From the IMG/VR virus record IMGVR_UViG_3300033069_001465: DNA of 64,000 bases. One strand, written 5' to 3'. Every line of letters starts with the position of its first letter. Positions within the stretch are counted from its first letter, which is position 1. Source of the DNA: a virus. Lineage: Duplodnaviria; Caudoviricetes. Below the pieces are notes generated by a model. It ran no database searches and was not told where the DNA came from. It was given only the letters and a program-made list of their open reading frames with translations. Positions 2,027 through 25,200 of this stretch are shown here, piece by piece. Both the position numbers and the translations under genes were made by a program.

Positions 2027-3001
2027 TTAGAACAATTCTCTTAATCTTCCTATAACCGTCATCCCTAATACAATCGGATCTGTATTTGTTTCTAATAATT
2101 TTGTATGTTCTGCAATAATATAATTTACCTGAAACAATTTATCAATGTTTTCTCTTTTTTCAGAAAATGACCATTGAATAAAATGTTTTCCAAATAGGTT
2201 AATCATTTCATCTATTTTATCTGGACCAAAGTTGTTCATTAAGAAATGATATATATCTTCATAATTTTTAGATTTGTCATAAATAATTGCATATAGATCA
2301 TTTCTCAATTTGAGATTTATATTTGAATTGGAGGATCCTTCTCCAGTTTCTTTAAAATGTTGAAGTTCATTCATCACTGAACGAAAATCTGGGAAATTTT
2401 TATTAATAATTTTTATTAAATCATCCTTTTTAATATTTATCTTTTCTTCTGGAGCAATTACATCCATTATTCTTTTATAGATGGATGTTTTAAGAAATTT
2501 TTCTTCATCAGCATTAATGCAGTCAAAGTTAATTTGTGTTGATCTTGATTTAATACCATCAGATATCTTATTAATGTGATTTGTATTAAATATAAATCGA
2601 ACATTTCGACTAGAATACTCATCTATGTATGCCTTTAAAGCATCTTGATATTGCGGAGATGTTCTTTCAAATTCATCTAAGAAAACATATTTCATAGAAT
2701 CTTGATCGATCATGTAGTCTAAGTCTAACCCCATATAAACTTTAGAACAGAAGTCATCAATTTTGGTCCTTAGAACATCAATTGAGGTATAGAAGGAGCT
2801 ATTTATTTCTAAGAAAGCTTTATCTTTTGAATATCTACCAATGAGTATTCTGGCTAATGTTGTTTTGCCGGTTCCATAATGTCCGTATAAAATAACATTT
2901 TTCTTAATTCCATCCTCAAATATTTTTTGAATTCTTGGTAGAAGAATAACATCTTCAAACTTTTTAGGTCTCCATTTTTCGCTTAGTAACAGTTCTTTCA
3001 T
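2027..3001 (-). CDS. gp44: Clamp loader AAA+ ATPase subunit (RFC small subunit / T4 gp44-like)
   Basis: EKWRPK..EDVIL, Walker A GHYGTGKTT, Walker B FLDEFE, SRC-like KSRS, PDFRSVMNELQ. Confidence 0.92.
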   Translation of the reverse strand: MKELLLSEKWRPKKFEDVILLPRIQKIFEDGIKKNVILYGHYGTGKTTLARILIGRYSKDKAFLEINSSFYTSIDVLRTKIDDFCSKVYMGLDLDYMIDQDSMKYVFLDEFERTSPQYQDALKAYIDEYSSRNVRFIFNTNHINKISDGIKSRSTQINFDCINADEEKFLKTSIYKRIMDVIAPEEKINIKKDDLIKIINKNFPDFRSVMNELQHFKETGEGSSNSNINLKLRNDLYAIIYDKSKNYEDIYHFLMNNFGPDKIDEMINLFGKHFIQWSFSEKRENIDKLFQVNYIIAEHTKLLETNTDPIVLGMTVIGRLRELF

Positions 3002-3032
3002 AATTATAAATTGATATAATTATAAATTGATA
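3001..3032. repeat. Perfect 16-bp tandem duplication (TAATTATAAATTGATA x2) immediately upstream of the clamp loader start
   Basis: Direct reading of 3001-3016 and 3017-3032. Confidence 0.85.
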
Positions 3033-3044
3033 TAGTTTGAAAGT

Positions 3045-3488
3045 TTATTTAAATCGTGATCCACGATATCTACCCCCAATAAATCCACTACCACCATATG
3101 ACTTACTAATTGGATCCTTTATTTCTAAGCTCATAATAGCATCTATAAATTCTTGAGGTGGTTTATACTTATGATCTCGTACATAGTGTGATACTTTACT
3201 TGGGAATTTATAACATTTCCCATTATATTCAATTTTTTTAACTTGTGATCCCATAAGAACACCACATAATTCGCACTGGTGAAACCCTTTATGTCTTTCT
3301 GAAGTATACTCATCTGAACGTTCTACTGCTTCTAGCTTTTTAATAAATTCTTCAGAAACCTCACCAGTCGTAAAGTTTTCTTCACTCCCGATCCATCCGA
3401 CATTTAGGCATTCTTTACCATGTATACGACCATATGCATATGGAGTTAGGTCTTCATAATAAGATTCAAATAATTTTAGATGTTTCAT
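3045..3488 (-). CDS. Tagged hypothetical protein with an HxCxxC/H putative Zn site (MKHLKLFES...)
   Basis: LNVGW...HKGFHQCELC...HYVRDHKYKPPQEFIDA. Confidence 0.75.
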   Translation of the reverse strand: MKHLKLFESYYEDLTPYAYGRIHGKECLNVGWIGSEENFTTGEVSEEFIKKLEAVERSDEYTSERHKGFHQCELCGVLMGSQVKKIEYNGKCYKFPSKVSHYVRDHKYKPPQEFIDAIMSLEIKDPISKSYGGSGFIGGRYRGSRFK

Positions 3489-3519
3489 TTTAATATATAT
3501 TAAAATGAAACATCTAAAA
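3474..3519. repeat. 46-bp perfect palindrome spanning two divergent start codons; probable bidirectional promoter TTTAATATATATTAAA
   Basis: TTTTAGATGTTTCAT-TTTAATATATATTAAA-ATGAAACATCTAAAA is its own reverse complement. Confidence 0.9.
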
Positions 3520-3993
3520 AAGTTTGAAGGATTTAGTCAGTTCACAATGTATGGAGAAAAATGGAAAGATCAAGCTCCAAATGAACTTACGATAATTAAA
3601 GATAAAGAAATAAGAAAATATCATCGGGAGAATACCGATTGTATTGGTGATTTAGTACAAATAAACTACGTAGCAGATAGTATTGTATATGGTGATCCTG
3701 ATGAAATGGAAATAGATATTTATATGATTAATATAAATAACCAATTAAAATTAAATGTTGATATTACATATGGTGATTTGGTTGTTTCCGAATTTAGTAT
3801 AGAGGCACCACATAAAGTTAGTGTTATTCAATATACATCTTATCATTCTAAATTTGATCCAAGTAATACTATTTTTGCCTTTGAGGATGAATCATTAGAA
3901 GCCTTTATTGCCTTCTTAAACAACTTTGACGGATTTCAATTAACAACTGATGATTTTAAATTTTTAGATAAAAGGGATAATTATTCTCAATAG
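3505..3993 (+). CDS. Tagged hypothetical protein (MKHLKKFEGF...)
   Basis: ORF track; N-terminal motif. Confidence 0.75.
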   Translation: MKHLKKFEGFSQFTMYGEKWKDQAPNELTIIKDKEIRKYHRENTDCIGDLVQINYVADSIVYGDPDEMEIDIYMININNQLKLNVDITYGDLVVSEFSIEAPHKVSVIQYTSYHSKFDPSNTIFAFEDESLEAFIAFLNNFDGFQLTTDDFKFLDKRDNYSQ

Positions 3994-4310
3994 TCAAAGT
4001 CTTCATCAGTGTAAAAAATATCAACATCACCATAATCGGTATTATTGAAATACCATCCTCCCCAATCTGTATCTTCAACAGATTCAGCATTCAATAGCTT
4101 GAATATTTGTTCTTTTACTTCATCATTGAATTCTATATCTGGTATTAATATATCAATATCGTGTTCGGATGTAACTTTTCCTTTCCCAAATCCACCAATG
4201 AGTGATGCATTTTTTGATATATTTTTTTGTAATAAAGACAATGCTTTATTCGCATCATCTATTGTATGCAACTTTTCAGTAATATACTCCTTAAATAATT
4301 TTATTTTCAT
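3987..4310 (-). CDS. Tagged minimal nucleotidyltransferase (Pol-beta superfamily)
   Basis: LIGGFGKG.....HDIDILI matches the hG[GS]-x(9-13)-DhDh signature, with a third acidic strand DVDIF; N-terminus MKIKLFKEY. Confidence 0.7.
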   Translation of the reverse strand: MKIKLFKEYITEKLHTIDDANKALSLLQKNISKNASLIGGFGKGKVTSEHDIDILIPDIEFNDEVKEQIFKLLNAESVEDTDWGGWYFNNTDYGDVDIFYTDEDFDY

Positions 4311-4323
4311 AATACATATTTTA

Positions 4324-4350
4324 TTTATATATAAATCTATGATTGGAGAA
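4324..4350 (+). repeat. 27-bp direct repeat, copy 1 (TTTATATATAAATCTATGATTGGAGAA); duplicated promoter plus first 4 codons of the gp15-like gene
   Basis: Identical to 6856-6882. Confidence 0.9.
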
Positions 4351-4358
4351 TTTCTGGA

Positions 4359-6824
4359 TTAGATACTAATATAGAATCTTGAATTTCCTGATGATATACC
4401 TTGAATCATCTTCATTTCCCCTTGATTAAGCACTATGTTTGATTTTATCTTATCAACAAGTTCATCCAATTCTTCTTTCTTTTTGGTGTGGCTTAGATAA
4501 TTAAATATCTCACTGAAATAATCTACATGATTTCTTCCTTGTTGATGAAAATCCTGTCCATCTATTTTTGACCACTTATCAGCTTGATTTCTAGTTCTTT
4601 TAACTAAATTAAAATAGTTTTGGAACCCCCAATTAAAATAGTAATAAATTAGAGAAACCGATTCGTGTTGATATATATCCATATTAGGAATTATTTGATT
4701 ACCATAGTTCTTTCTGACCTTTGTCCTATTTTTGACCAACCAATCACATAGTTTTTCTCTCTCACTATCATCCAATCTAAAATCCTCTCTTAAATAAGGT
4801 GTTTGATTATATGACTCCATGTTAAATAAAATTCTTATTAGGAATTTCATTTGATCTTTACTGAAACTAATTTTTAGACTGTTCATTAAATCAATATTAT
4901 CAGTTTTAACTAAACTGGTAATCATATAGAGAGTTGATGTAAACCCTAGTTCATCATATCTACCAAATGAGAATGACTCATTTTTTAATTTAGGATAGAA
5001 ATAATCAACTATTGTTTGCGCATCTATGTCTCTTTTATTTCTATCAATTTTTACAACCCACTGTTTTATAGTATTTAGTGCATAATTCGTTGTTGTATAT
5101 TGTGGTAATACTTTTTTATAGAGTCTTAATAGTTCCTCCCTTTCACACAATTCTTTTAATTTAGGGTATCCTGATAAATATTCTTCATCGATATCTAAGA
5201 ATACTGAGGAACTTATTTTATTTTCATCTAAAAATTTATTCATTGCTTCTTCTTGACTAGAGGATGGATTGATAACCAAATCAACTATTTTATCAACGTG
5301 TGATTTTATTTGTGGATATTTTTTAGATAACTTCATCCAAACATTTAATGGATTTGAGTTAAAAACATAACCTAAGTCAAATTTTGATTTTTGTATTAAT
5401 TTTATTAAGCCATCCGTATCGACCTCATACCCATTTAATTTCGCAAATTCTAATATTTCATCTATCTTACTAACATTATTATCTCTTAAGTAGCTAACCA
5501 ATTGATCCCATGTAAATATGTGTGGCCCAACTCCATAGTATTTTAAAACATATAATTGTTGATTAAAATTTAGCCCATAGTTAGAAAAGCTTTCTATCGT
5601 CGAATTTTGTAGTCGATCTATTATATCAATAGAATCATAATCAAATATTTTCTTTAGATCTTCATCTTTTGTATCAAACATTTTTATTTCTCTTGGGAAT
5701 GGATTTAAATTAAATAAATAGTTCATATTTATTTTTTCTCTTAGTTTAAATTGTTTTTTTCTACTAATTATCCATTCTAAGCCCTTTCCCTTTATTTGGC
5801 CGAGATAATTTATCTCCATTTTATCTTGCAGCCCATGATTTTCCATTTCATCTGTAGTGAATAGTTTAAAGTCATCTTGTTTAAATACGGATTTATTTTT
5901 TAGAATATCATCTTTTGATATTCCAAATTCAATTAGGTCGCTTACCGGAGTGTTATTAAAATTAATCTCATCAAATTTAATTTTCAATGAGTCTAATTTA
6001 AACCCCCTATCTAATAGTATCGCTGATAACTTATCAGAATAAATTGATCTATCATCAACTAAATGAGCTGTATAAAGCTTATATCCATAGGTTATTCCTA
6101 TTTTTCTATAATTATCATTTAGATCTGTCAAGAAGGCAACAAATTGTCTATTTAACCCATTATTATAAGAATTAAATGTAGATTGATCCAAAATACACCA
6201 ACTTGTATCACCTGCTAATCTTCTTAATTGGAAACTATCAGAAACTTTAATTATAATTATGTCATTCGCCTTGCTTTTATAAATTAAATCAACATTTGTA
6301 TTCTTAACTTCTCTTAAGATAGATTCGTATTTTAAGTTCTTTTGATTTACAAAAGAGTTCAAAGCATTAGACAATTCAGATTGAGTTTTATATCTTGATA
6401 TTTTCTTTATGAATACGTTTTTATCTTTTCTATCATATAATTTCAAAAATAGAGGATACATATTACTATTTACCAAATCTTTCTGTGTAGAAGGTAACTC
6501 TGATATCATTTGTTTAATCTTCCAATTATTTCTAGCGGATATAATATCATCTTGTAACTCTTCCCATTTTGAATAATTCGTAATGGTTTTGTTTAAGTTT
6601 CTAATATAAGGCGCGGATATTATCAAATCATATAACTCTTTAAGTGACTCAAAGCTAACACCTTGTTCTAGCCACATTTTAACAAAGAATCCTAAATATC
6701 CATTATGATCTTTAGTTAACTCCTTTATGTCATTATATGTTTTGCTATTTTCACCCACCCCAAACTTTCGCAAAATTGATCTGGCTAGTTGTGTATTTTC
6801 AAATAATTTAAAATTATCGATCAT
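4359..6824 (-). CDS. Large tagged hypothetical protein (821 aa) with a T-S-W-C-I (PcfJ-like) segment
   Basis: MIDNFKLFEN tag; LAGDTSWCI...TFNSYN motif; TAATATATA box 4 nt upstream; flanked by 27-bp direct repeats. Confidence 0.75.
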   Translation of the reverse strand: MIDNFKLFENTQLARSILRKFGVGENSKTYNDIKELTKDHNGYLGFFVKMWLEQGVSFESLKELYDLIISAPYIRNLNKTITNYSKWEELQDDIISARNNWKIKQMISELPSTQKDLVNSNMYPLFLKLYDRKDKNVFIKKISRYKTQSELSNALNSFVNQKNLKYESILREVKNTNVDLIYKSKANDIIIIKVSDSFQLRRLAGDTSWCILDQSTFNSYNNGLNRQFVAFLTDLNDNYRKIGITYGYKLYTAHLVDDRSIYSDKLSAILLDRGFKLDSLKIKFDEINFNNTPVSDLIEFGISKDDILKNKSVFKQDDFKLFTTDEMENHGLQDKMEINYLGQIKGKGLEWIISRKKQFKLREKINMNYLFNLNPFPREIKMFDTKDEDLKKIFDYDSIDIIDRLQNSTIESFSNYGLNFNQQLYVLKYYGVGPHIFTWDQLVSYLRDNNVSKIDEILEFAKLNGYEVDTDGLIKLIQKSKFDLGYVFNSNPLNVWMKLSKKYPQIKSHVDKIVDLVINPSSSQEEAMNKFLDENKISSSVFLDIDEEYLSGYPKLKELCEREELLRLYKKVLPQYTTTNYALNTIKQWVVKIDRNKRDIDAQTIVDYFYPKLKNESFSFGRYDELGFTSTLYMITSLVKTDNIDLMNSLKISFSKDQMKFLIRILFNMESYNQTPYLREDFRLDDSEREKLCDWLVKNRTKVRKNYGNQIIPNMDIYQHESVSLIYYYFNWGFQNYFNLVKRTRNQADKWSKIDGQDFHQQGRNHVDYFSEIFNYLSHTKKKEELDELVDKIKSNIVLNQGEMKMIQGISSGNSRFYISI

Positions 6825-6855: not shown

Positions 6856-6882
6856 TTTATATATAAATCTATGATTGGAGAA
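6856..6882 (+). repeat. 27-bp direct repeat, copy 2 (promoter and start of the gp15-like gene)
   Basis: Identical to 4324-4350. Confidence 0.9.
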
Positions 6883-7617
6883 AGATTTAATTTTGAAGAT
6901 GTGTTTTTTCGTGACTTAACAGTTTGTGTTTTGGATACATTAGAAGGTGAAGTTTGGTGGACGAATCGATTTTCATCAGGAGACATAGAAGTTAAGGTTC
7001 CTTTTTATTATTCCATGACAGGAGATGAAAGATTTCTCTTAGATTCTTTTGCTGATGATGTCGTTTCTGATAACAGATATGTAGAGTTAAACACTGATAT
7101 TATACCAAGAGGTCATTTAACAATGACTGGATTTGATATTAAATCAGATGAATTTGCTAATCCAAATGTTTGGCTAAGAACTGTTGTTGAGAACAAAACA
7201 GAAATTAAAAAAGTTTTAACGAAAGTTAGAGCAGTTCCGATATCGGTTAAATACGACTTATCAATTTTATTAGCAAGTGAAATAGATTCTTTTAAATGCA
7301 GTCAGGCAATAATTAATACCCTATGGTTGTATAGGTTTATGTATTTTGAACACAACTATATGAATATAGATGCGGTCATGATACTTCCGGATGCAAATCA
7401 GGTTGAAATTTCAAGAGAGAAGAACCTTACAACTGACAATACTATCAAATTGACAGTATCTTTTGAAGTTCATACTTATTACCCAGCATTTCGAAGTGGT
7501 GATGGGACAACTGATGTAATAAATCCAAAGAAAACCAGATGGTATTTGAATTTAATTGAATCTAGACGAGCCGGAGTTCCATTTGTTTTAGATAATAATA
7601 TAAATAATAATCCTTAA
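6871..7617 (+). CDS. gp15: Tail terminator / tail completion protein (T4 gp15-like)
   Basis: IEVKVPFYY, IPRGHL, AVPISVKYDLSI...SQAII and terminal LTVSFEVHTYYP follow the gp15 family pattern. Confidence 0.65.
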   Translation: MIGERFNFEDVFFRDLTVCVLDTLEGEVWWTNRFSSGDIEVKVPFYYSMTGDERFLLDSFADDVVSDNRYVELNTDIIPRGHLTMTGFDIKSDEFANPNVWLRTVVENKTEIKKVLTKVRAVPISVKYDLSILLASEIDSFKCSQAIINTLWLYRFMYFEHNYMNIDAVMILPDANQVEISREKNLTTDNTIKLTVSFEVHTYYPAFRSGDGTTDVINPKKTRWYLNLIESRRAGVPFVLDNNINNNP

Positions 7618-9091: not shown

Positions 9092-9457
9092 ATGTATCTT
9101 CACAATCGGGACTTATACGCAGAAATTGTCGTATCGAAAGCACAAGGCAAACTAACAAATAAATCTAAACTAATGTTAGAAATCTTAGCCAAGAGAACCA
9201 TCAAAAAAATGAGATATTGGAACAATGATGACAAAATGGATTGTTATCAAAGTGGTTTATTAGATATGTTCGGTAACTGGTATAACTTTAATGAAGAAAA
9301 AAGTGATAACGCCTTCGCATACTTTACCGAGGTTTTTAAACGTGGATTGGCAAAGGGTTTTAATGAAATTTACAAAAAGAAAGGAGATAACGAGAATTTA
9401 ATTAAGGTTATTAGTATCGAGTCGTCAAATGATGGACAGGGACTACATTCTTTATAA
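9092..9457 (+). CDS. gp55: Late-transcription sigma factor (T4 gp55-like)
   Basis: YLHNRDLYAEI...DDKMDCYQSGL..MFGNWYNFNEEKSDNAFAYFTEV matches the gp55 region-2 pattern (NxFAYFT). Confidence 0.8.
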   Translation: MYLHNRDLYAEIVVSKAQGKLTNKSKLMLEILAKRTIKKMRYWNNDDKMDCYQSGLLDMFGNWYNFNEEKSDNAFAYFTEVFKRGLAKGFNEIYKKKGDNENLIKVISIESSNDGQGLHSL

Positions 9458-22295: not shown

Positions 22296-25200
22296 ATGAA
22301 ATATTTAAAATATCATCAAGAATATAGAATGGAGAATCTTAAAACTGACTTTGAATCATCTACAATGATAAGCGAGGCATTTGAGAACGACATAACATGG
22401 GGTGGATCTTTATTAGGAAGGCTTATCAATTCAACATTAAGGAAGATGAAGATTGGATATAACTATACTAAAATAAATAACTTAGTCAAATTATTTAACC
22501 AAGAATTATATTCTTTATTAGAAGACTACTCTTTAAATGATGATGAAAAGAAAAAGCTAAACAACTTATCATATAGAATGTTGTTAGAAGAGATTTATAA
22601 AGAAGTTTCTAGTGAGAAAGATGTTAAAGAGAAATTAAAAATTCTTTTAGGTGATGCTTCAAATATCGGATTAGTAGATAATGTTATTTCACAAGTAGAA
22701 AAAGCTAATTTAGAAAACAAGGAGGTTCTTCTTGAAAAACTAAAGAAATTTAAAAATGATTTATTAGAAATTCAAAAAGGATTAGGAATAGATGGCGAAG
22801 GTGAAGGAGAGGGAGAAGAAAATGCGGATGATGCCAAATCTAATCCAGCAGTTATTTTTTATAACAATTCAAAATTATTATTACAATCAATTTGTAAAAT
22901 ACATAGAGATATTAAGAATAACACAGTTAAATTTGAAAAAGGTGTTAGTGATGAAATAAAAGTTGGTAATGAATATTCCTATACTAATAAAGAAGGAAAA
23001 ACTAATAGAGTTAAAGTTATATCATTAAATAATGTTATTAATATTGGTGATGATAAAGAATATTTAACTAAAGATGATGTTAAAAAGGAACCTATTAAAA
23101 AAGGATTAGTTTCAGTAGCTGTTATGGGATCAGACGGTAAATATACCGCATCTACTGTTGCAGTTGATCCATCTATGCTTAAAAAGACTACTGATAGTAA
23201 AACATCTACTTTTTTTGATGATAAGAAATATCAACAACAAAGAACTAATACATCACAAGAAATTCTAACTAAAATAGAACTAGCAAAGAAAGGACTTTCT
23301 GTATATACTGCCAAAAGAAATAAAGAAAGAGTTAATTTCTATAATAATGAAATTAAAACATACCAAGCAAAATTAGATAGAGTTAAAGGTAAAGAAGCTA
23401 CTAAAGTTCCAGGAAAGGTTTCAACTGAAACAAGACCTGATTATGATGTAACAGCAGATAAAAGAGCTAAAGAAGAAACTAAAAGAATGCATGGTCAGCC
23501 AATGACTACTGAATCTGTTATTAATGAGGAAGTTGATGCAAATCTTAGAGACCAAGAATCTCAAGCTAGATTTTCATGGAATAAAGTGGTTAATGCTTAT
23601 AATAAATCAGGAATTGCTAAATTTGTTCCATATATCGAATCAATAATTGATGTTAATGGTGCTGATAAATTAAAAGAATCTAAGAAAAAAATACTTGAAA
23701 TTGGTAGGCAAGTTGTAATAAACTATGATAATGTTGGTAAACCAATTTCTATGGATGAGCTAATATCTGAAGCTGAGGGAACCTCTGTATCAGATATTGC
23801 TAAGTCTATATCATTATTTGGTAGAGTTTTGTTAGCATTTTCTGAAGATATGGGACTTTTAGGTTCTTATGGCAATTCATATAAATCAGAAGGTGATGCT
23901 GGTGGTGCAGGAAATCATATTAAGTTATTCATCAATTCATTTAATAAAATAAAAGAGGTATACCCATCAATTAAAAAAGAATCAATTGTTAGAGATTATT
24001 CTTCTTTCATATTAATAAAAGAGGAAGCTGACGAAGCTCCTGATAATATTAAGCTTGATGAACCTAAACCTGATGAAGAACAACCAGCAGGACAGCCAGT
24101 AGAACCACAGAATACTGAAGTTCCAGATGAGAGTGATAATAGTGATCGTGTTAAAAAGTCTTGGTTCAAATTCTTTAAAAAAGATGAAGAAAAAGAATGG
24201 AAAGTAACCAAAGAGGATCAACAATTAAGAGATGATATTGAAAAGAAAGAAGGAACTGATATAAAATTATCGAATCCTGATGATGATCATATTATTAAAA
24301 TTGTAAACATTTTTGGAAGAGCATATAAATTATATGCAACTGACTATATTCCATCAGGTCGTCCTAATGGGAAGATATCATTAAAAACAATGAGAGAATA
24401 TGAACACATTGGCCAAGGTGAACCTAAGTGGAGTGCAGAAGGTACTCCTGGTTTTGGACCATGGGCGGCTAAACTTCCATATAATAAATGGCAAGATGGA
24501 ATAACTAAGATATTAGAAGATAAACAATTAAGAAGAATATTAGCTAATGCTAAGTTTGTTTCTGATGCTGAATCTAGCACAAACACTCCAATGAAATCAC
24601 CTGGATCAGGAAAAACATTACTTACATTTATAAATGACTTGTTAAATAATGATAATGGTACTTTTAAGAAGCATAGAGCTATTATATTTAAAAAATATTT
24701 TAATACTGAAGGAAGTGGTGGCGGAACAGCTCAACAAGGCAACTTACCAGATTCGCCTACTTTTGATCCAATTATTTCGAAGGATGATGAGGGTGCAGTA
24801 GACATGCCTTTTTTTAGTGAGCAATTTACTACTGGATTAAAAAACAAAAAAGGAAATATTATAAAGGTTGTATCTAAAGACGATAATGTCTATACTATTT
24901 ATCCTATTACTGCCGGAAGTGATAAAGATCCATATGTTTTATTCAGATATCAAGTGAGTAGTAAGAATAATCCTAAACAATCAATTGCTAGTGATTACGT
25001 CAGAAAGCAAACTGCCAAAACGGAAAATAAAGAGGTCTATAAAACAGATTATATTGAAGATGTGAGAAATAATGGTATTCCTTATTCAAATGATGTTAGG
25101 ATCAACATTGGATTTGCATCTACTAAAGGATTTCTAATTGGTGGTAAATTTCCATTTAAATCAATAAGTGTTGAGGATATTAAGAATAATAATTTTAATG

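Follow-up and report, generated by a model that had tools for sequence, protein, structure and literature searches.

A 46-bp perfect palindrome spanning two divergent gene starts in a Mahaphage-like huge phage: a candidate compact two-way late promoter with probably homogenised arms

Bacterial genomes contain promoter regions with a pseudo-symmetric sequence that are read in both directions (Warman et al., 10.1101/2020.01.31.928960; PMC12825309). In E. coli, such bidirectional promoters have overlapping -10 elements, and their start sites are most often separated by 18 bp (10.1101/2020.01.31.928960). The late promoters of phage T4, which involve gp55, gp33 and gp45, are built on an 8-bp TATA box located at positions -13 to -6, roughly a helical turn ahead of the start, and lack a -35 element, with late transcripts of either polarity being produced (PMC2988020). 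Two further bodies of work concern, respectively, imperfect inverted repeats and protein leaders. Template switching between the arms of an inverted repeat generates multinucleotide changes that homogenise the arms (PMC8604942; PMC7202029), and this process has been described for quasipalindromes in particular (PMC7202029, PMC8604942, PMC13100816). Also, several unrelated late proteins of T4 (IPI-III and Alt) carry a short N-terminal capsid-targeting sequence (PMC3012670). Here we describe a phage locus that can be compared with each of these systems.

The locus lies in a 64,000-nucleotide stretch of viral DNA, called the window hereafter, with a G+C content of 25-33%. The gp44-like clamp loader encoded in the window shares 60.6% identity with its counterpart in LR756502, an uncultured phage of 642 kb, and 57% with the one in LR745206. 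Both phages are members of the Mahaphage clade, whose huge phages infect Bacteroidetes (PMC7162821). Judged from its sequence, the window is thus part of an uncultured Mahaphage-like huge phage. The features used below are the following, by position in the window.

2027-3001, minus strand: clamp-loader large subunit, gp44-like (phrog_168, 6e-50, plus Gp44_lid), the conserved left anchor of the locus.
3045-3488, minus strand: gene A, 147 aa, an MKHLKLFE leader followed by a DUF7919 domain.
3465-3528, no strand: near-palindrome of 64 bp spanning codons 1-8 of genes A and B, with codon 6 as its sole break.
3474-3519, no strand: perfect palindrome composed of 15 nt of the gene A start (reverse complement), the 16-bp spacer and 15 nt of the gene B start.
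3489-3504, no strand: intergenic spacer of 16 bp, read as a shared bidirectional late promoter (predicted).
3489-3499, plus strand: late-promoter-like box of gene B, with 5 nt between its end and the ATG (3505).
3494-3504, minus strand: late-promoter-like box of gene A, with 5 nt between its end and the ATG (3488).
3505-3993, plus strand: gene B, 162 aa, an MKHLKKFE leader followed by a beta-rich orphan domain.
6871-7617, plus strand: tail sheath stabiliser, gp15-like (PF16724, 8.4e-6, plus synteny), the conserved right anchor.
9092-9457, plus strand: gp55-like late sigma, 121 aa (phrog_234, 6.1e-7), 5.6 kb from the palindrome.

In LR756502 and LR745206, the clamp-loader and gp15-like genes are directly divergent without any intervening gene. 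In the window, four lineage-specific genes stand between these anchors, that is A, B, a small nucleotidyltransferase gene and a gene encoding an 821-aa protein. An IMG/VR relative (L006) has B between the same two anchors, on the gp15 strand; a related fragment of 20.8 kb (G001) has no A-B locus, and IMG/VR scans by protein A alone or protein B alone returned no relatives. Gene B is the lone plus-strand gene amid a minus-strand run, and its 3' end overlaps by 7 nt (3987-3993) that of the convergent nucleotidyltransferase gene, with no terminator between them. On the other side, genes A and the clamp loader are separated by a 43-bp gap (3002-3044) in which a 16-nt unit is present in two tandem copies abutting the clamp-loader ATG. 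This gap, possibly a regulatory site of the early or middle class, is wholly conserved in a close relative of the locus, a JGI metagenome contig (L022).

The stretch from 3474 to 3519 is its own reverse complement. The start codons of genes A (3488) and B (3505) are separated by 16 bp, and both ORFs open with ATG AAA CAT CTA AAA, encoding MKHLK. Perfect symmetry ends with an A facing an A at 3473/3520; it resumes beyond codon 6, which reads TTA in gene A and AAG in gene B. By comparing with the rest of the window, we found that this palindrome is the longest, with a runner-up of 24 bp. In 30 simulated sequences of 64 kb (first-order Markov), the longest palindrome measured 18.6 bp on average and 24 bp at most. 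Folded as single-stranded DNA, the 64-nt stretch reaches -21.6 kcal/mol, with a z-score of -10.7 relative to shuffles. Pattern scans of IMG/VR and GTDB contigs did not find the exact 46-bp palindrome, the perfect state being known only in the window, and a variant-tolerant pattern gave zero matches among GTDB genome contigs and IMG/VR. An IMG/VR scan with the spacer and both start codons gave a single match, which is unrelated.

ORFs A and B are both taken as real genes because A matches the Pfam family DUF7919 (PF25535, 1.4e-28) and B belongs to a family for which 245 homologues were detected. The similarity between the two proteins is confined to their first 10 residues. In the AlphaFold model of A, residues 1-24 have a pLDDT below 50; the model of B has a pLDDT of 82.9 and residues 1-6 are disordered. 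Neither fold model had a match in the PDB at E <= 0.001.

The boxes of genes A and B overlap in the self-complementary TATATA core (3494-3499), and the spacer as a whole is fully self-complementary. The form of the box at both genes is TAATATATA, the consensus in the window and its relatives being TTAATATATA. An ATATATA box preceded by T or A and ending 4-7 nt upstream of the ATG was found for 22 of the 38 boxed genes of the window; the corresponding counts are 129/256 in LR756502 and 104/240 in LR745206. In these three sequences the box-to-ATG distance peaks again at 17-28 nt, and values between the two peaks are nearly absent, a bimodality which suggests two classes of late mRNAs, leaderless and short-leadered. 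The box is also present upstream of the gp15-like gene (6871), the terminase gene (18664, minus strand), tagged genes and a tail-sheath-like gene (26021), the latter called from a weak Pfam match below the cut-off. A sigma-70 promoter scan showed no enrichment compared to shuffles. Moreover, the 14-bp core of the overlapped spacer occurs six times in 2.08 Mb of DNA from this phage group, and four of these occurrences are between divergent gene starts, three of them at other loci in LR756502 and LR745206. An overlapped bidirectional box is shared by LR756502 (383488-383506) and LR745206 (362258-362279); the gene on its left is orthologous in the two phages (MKYLNS..) and the one on its right differs, which makes this promoter a possible joint at which genes are replaced.

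The probable reader of the box is the gp55-like sigma encoded at 9092-9457. Its match to phrog_234 is weak (30.7 bits), and its orthologues in LR756502 and LR745206 match the same profile. T4 gp55, for which there is no Pfam family, gave no match in these relatives when used as a direct query, the sigma being found only via the PHROG profile. Given that the T4 box occupies positions -13 to -6 and that the boxes here end 5 nt before the ATG, each transcript would start on the A of its own ATG (3488 and 3505), 17 bp apart, yielding two divergent leaderless mRNAs. Since the spacing is 5 nt on both sides and both boxes follow the promoter consensus, a 16-bp spacer would be forced to be self-complementary. 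The two binding modes of the polymerase would overlap, so that one direction would fire at a time. We infer promoter activity and leaderless starts from this geometry, as we infer the function of the tag and the copying mechanism discussed below from sequence comparison.

The locus resembles bacterial bidirectional promoters in that a pseudo-symmetric region would be read both ways with its key elements coinciding on opposite strands, that binding in one orientation would exclude the other, and that the start sites, about 18 bp apart in bacteria, where the class is marked by a separation of 7-25 bp, are predicted to be 17 bp apart here. It differs from them by its box, which is of the T4 late type and probably read by a gp55-like phage sigma instead of sigma-70, by transcripts that are predicted to be leaderless on both sides, and by a symmetry running 15 nt into both coding regions because proteins A and B share their leader. 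With T4 late promoters it has in common a single A/T-rich TATA-type box without -35 element in front of virion genes, a phage-encoded late sigma together with a clamp loader, and, as predicted, late transcripts of either polarity. Unlike the T4 octamer TATAAATA at -13 to -6, the box here reads TAATATATA (consensus TTAATATATA), and in about half of the genes it is only 4-7 nt away from the ATG, which implies a leaderless mRNA. To our knowledge, leaderless late mRNA of such geometry is not known for T4. A first-pass annotation of the window had already pointed out the 46-bp perfect palindrome, the two unrelated genes diverging with 16 bp between their starts and both beginning with MKHLK, and the box 5 nt before each ATG on both strands. 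All of this agrees with what we observed: the self-complementarity of 3474-3519, simulations never exceeding 24 bp, both ORF starts, a protein likeness ending after residue 10 and TAATATATA on the strand of each gene. The bidirectional promoter that it placed in the 16 bp gains support from the fixed genome-wide position of the boxes and from the gp55-like sigma, its activity being predicted from these.

Leaders of the type MK[YH]LK..FE, with which both A and B begin, are common in this phage, where they presumably target proteins to the capsid. An MK[YH][LI]K-type leader opens each of the 11 close homologues of A, and all sampled homologues of B start with the leader too. The B orthologues of LR756502 and LR745206, which begin with MKYLRKFNE or MKHIKRFLE, are each preceded at 4-5 nt by a late box of their own, and one A homologue in IMG/VR has its own late box within an array of tagged genes. 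More generally, among the A and B homologues with readable DNA (LR756502, LR745206 and IMG/VR loci), each either carries a separate late box ahead of its ATG or belongs to a tagged operon behind one. The T4 capsid-targeting sequence, about 10 residues long with a (Leu/Ile)-x-Glu end, is similar in being a short N-terminal leader on unrelated late proteins; the leader here is predicted to be disordered, and in gene A it ends in Leu-x-Glu (Leu-Phe-Glu). It is dissimilar in that the B leader of the window ends in Lys-Phe-Glu, without Leu or Ile at P3, and in that the leader here is found on well over a hundred genes, compared to a handful, and is known from sequence alone. Another B haplotype ends in Leu-Phe-Glu: at residue 6 of B (codon at 3520-3522), the alternation of Lys and Leu switches the residue expected at P3 of a T4-type Leu/Ile-x-Glu protease site. 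Most members of the B family have Lys at residue 6, and a simple L-x-E cut does not fit the family. A search for a gp21-type prohead protease (PF03420) gave sub-threshold scores of 22.7 and 20.1 bits in ORFs of about 700 aa in LR756502 and LR745206. Apart from the T4 review, our literature search found no described huge-phage tag or capsid-targeting motif.

A metagenome scan returned a single close locus, that of L022, whose B protein is 98% identical. The same A-B locus is present there with an asymmetric spacer of 18 bp and a B protein starting with MKYLKLFE (codon 3 TAT, codon 6 TTA), forming an inverted repeat with one mismatch in 24-nt arms. Among the 45 differences between the window and L022, 7 are inside the 64 bp around the spacer (2.3 expected, P = 0.009), a clustering that is no more than suggestive when counted as 3 events instead of 7 bases. 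There are three variable sites, and at each of them one allele equals the state of the opposite arm: the window has this state in its codon 3 (CAT) and its 16-bp spacer, L022 in its codon 6 (TTA). The three-base difference at codon 6 and the 2-bp indel plus substitution in the spacer are complex changes of the kind that template switching produces. Beyond gene B, the match between L022 (2247-2570) and the window (4028-6310) runs 41 nt past the B stop and then into the 821-aa gene, L022 continuing with the part of that gene for about residues 64-170, where the ORF ends. L022 is devoid of the nucleotidyltransferase gene and of most of the 821-aa gene, an apparent indel of about 2.3 kb between strains.

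Gene calls running through the spacer (P0135, P0140, P0149 and P0150) indicate that the 18-bp spacer exists in four contigs including L022, with either B tag. In this configuration the ATG-AAA-CAT of the neighbour supplies, in reverse complement, an in-frame ATG that adds nine spurious residues to A or B, and these four proteins have falsely extended starts in public gene calls. The exact A protein of the window is found on 3 contigs and the exact B protein on 26. A-B adjacency is seen again in independent assemblies, at the DNA level in L022, and is indicated in others by extended calls or matching contig sizes. Also, divergent forms of A and B (82% and 86% identical; P0002 and P0155) probably share one Logan contig of 7,532 bp; because of this apparent co-location, the pairing of A with B is probably older than the palindrome. 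The leader of the 86% outgroup cluster is MKYLKKFE. If this version is ancestral, every derived change raises the symmetry, the polarity of the changes being taken from protein-level outgroups alone. In one protein (P0151), the Y/L tag goes with a residue further downstream that is elsewhere paired with the H/K tag, and the history of the locus is blurred by recombination or homoplasy.

The 15-nt start shared by A and B is exclusive to these two genes among the 28 tag-like starts of the window. The modal version of the tag uses TAT TTA, so that of the five codons ATG, AAA and AAA are modal and CAT CTA is a rare variant. Two random tags share their first 15 nt with a probability of 0.021 in the window, 0.0076 in LR756502 and 0.0042 in LR745206. 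We scanned three whole genomes for palindromes besides the window (LR756502, LR745206 and LR756501). In LR756502, an independent perfect palindrome of 56 bp (25094-25149) lies between two other unrelated tagged genes (367 and 145 aa). Its 28-nt arms flank the centre of a symmetric 26-bp spacer in which an unconstrained 5-nt stretch between box and ATG is identical on each side, and its 15-mer is limited to that pair among 159 tags. The whole-genome scans of LR745206 and LR756501 gave no start-codon-spanning palindrome, and other divergent tagged pairs, for example LR756502 79800/79818, do not have homogenised arms. A 28-bp palindrome at 479112 in LR756502 was left out of the count, its neighbours being ORFs of only 21 and 49 codons. 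By a rough hand estimate, about 0.1 start-spanning palindromes would be expected among the dozen or so tagged divergent pairs with gaps of at most 70 bp, against the two seen. DNA-level copying between the arms of the palindrome is therefore likely. As in quasipalindrome template switching, there is an imperfect inverted repeat in a close relative (L022), the multinucleotide differences are clustered and have alternative states that are those of the opposite arm, and what results is a promoter with a perfect palindrome. In contrast to the described cases, the process is deduced here from two DNA haplotypes plus protein-level variants with a polarity that is not firm, each arm is the 5' end of a protein-coding gene, and the donors may have been other promoter-tag copies.

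Taking these observations together, we consider with moderate confidence that the best reading is a compact overlapping bidirectional late promoter whose arms were homogenised in short patches. Two overlapped consensus promoters followed by a common leader would already make a quasi-palindrome, and the last step to perfect symmetry would be short-patch templated copying between the arms, either by template switching in the quasi-palindrome or by short gene conversion. Other tag copies, instead of the opposite arm, are an alternative donor of the patches. Perfect symmetry would then be a transient allele without functional requirement. That the constraints alone are enough, with overlapping consensus promoters and a common leader, codons matching by chance and no copying between arms, seems unlikely to us. 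The 5-nt spacing and the consensus indeed force the symmetry of the 16-bp spacer, three of the five codons are modal, two tags drawn at random from the window agree over 15 nt in about 2% of cases, and the locus was picked from very many windows, so that chance is not negligible. However, the 15-mer of A and B is a rare and not the modal variant, the three further genomes yielded another such palindrome, again with a 15-mer private to its pair and with unconstrained spacer bases identical on both sides (2 against about 0.1 expected), and the variable sites toggle between states that match and do not match the opposite arm, including the three-base codon change. The first-pass annotation had instead proposed that promoter and tag were copied as a DNA unit by inverted duplication. 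Copying at the DNA level is plausible, given the private 15-mer and the independent palindrome of LR756502, but a single inverted duplication putting promoter and tag as a unit onto an untagged gene is distinctly improbable. Arms identical over 23 nt and rare CAT CTA codons private to A and B would fit such an event, and a true inverted duplication is possible in LR756502, where the 28-nt identical arms include unconstrained spacer bases. At the A-B locus, the arms agree up to codon 5 and again at codons 7-8, as would fit patches better than one block, close relatives have imperfect versions, and A-B adjacency was probably present in the outgroup with different tags. In addition, the leader is already on 11/11 close A homologues and on all sampled B homologues, and the B orthologues and the IMG/VR A homologue own their late box 4-5 nt before the ATG elsewhere. 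Since both families were tagged and promoter-bearing before the palindrome, the suggested reading of the latter as a snapshot of new cargo genes gaining late expression and tag is not supported, and neither A nor B looks like a newly tagged recipient. The comparison with related genomes that had been advised to find single-gene ancestors thus leads to relatives in which both families already have the leader, to a pair that is probably older, and to an imperfect version in L022.

The remaining explanations give the symmetry itself a role or deny its existence. A symmetric DNA site with its own function, be it an operator for a dimeric regulator or a cruciform controlling both genes, would account for a long perfect stem centred on the promoter with a hairpin energy far beyond shuffles, and T4 DsbA is known to bind A/T-rich sites overlapping late promoters (PMC2988020). 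We nevertheless give it little credit: close relatives do not conserve the symmetry at this locus, scans of IMG/VR and GTDB contigs did not recover the exact palindrome, and a single dimeric reader cannot suit both the window and LR756502, whose palindrome differs in its arms and has a spacer of 26 bp. Even less probable is an RNA hairpin acting as a terminator or as an insulator against read-through entering antisense via gene B. The terminator scan raised a minus-strand flag, and B is a lone plus-strand gene in a minus-strand run; yet G-C pairs number 3 of the 20 counted and the tail has no proper U run, unlike an intrinsic terminator with its G+C-rich stem and U run. The hairpin is also weaker in L022, and where these genomes have genuine bidirectional terminators, the stems are rich in G+C and lie between runs of A and T. 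The probability of an assembly artefact, which had been raised as a concern, is close to nil. Chimeric reads can create palindromes, and the perfect form is known only in the window. However, 46 bp is shorter than a read, the palindrome stands between intact conserved ORFs, and A-B adjacency is confirmed at the DNA level in the independent assembly L022 and indicated in others.

Beyond the preferred reading of a compact promoter with homogenised arms, we put forward a more tentative idea, which we hold to be possible without regarding it as probable. The late box, the leaderless ATG and the first leader codons, about 40 bp in all and present in more than 130 copies per genome, may constitute a dispersed recombinogenic cassette under concerted evolution, serving as a joint for swapping, inverting and capturing cargo genes. 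If so, start-spanning palindromes would be visible intermediates of inverted cassette copying, and the suggestion of the first-pass annotation would be right for the phage group but not for A and B.

The locus offers a clean natural example of bidirectional promoter compression, with 16 bp between start codons and, as predicted, a leader on neither mRNA. On the practical side, codon 3 CAT mirrors the ATG of the other strand and, combined with an 18-bp spacer, leads to false gene extensions in public databases. If arm-to-arm copying is true, a rare homogenisation of a quasipalindrome would have been caught as coexisting haplotypes in wild phage populations, and it would act on the 5' ends of two protein genes. 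For the huge T4-related phages, the locus also suggests that a late promoter, an mRNA 5' end and a protein address tag may form one small DNA unit.
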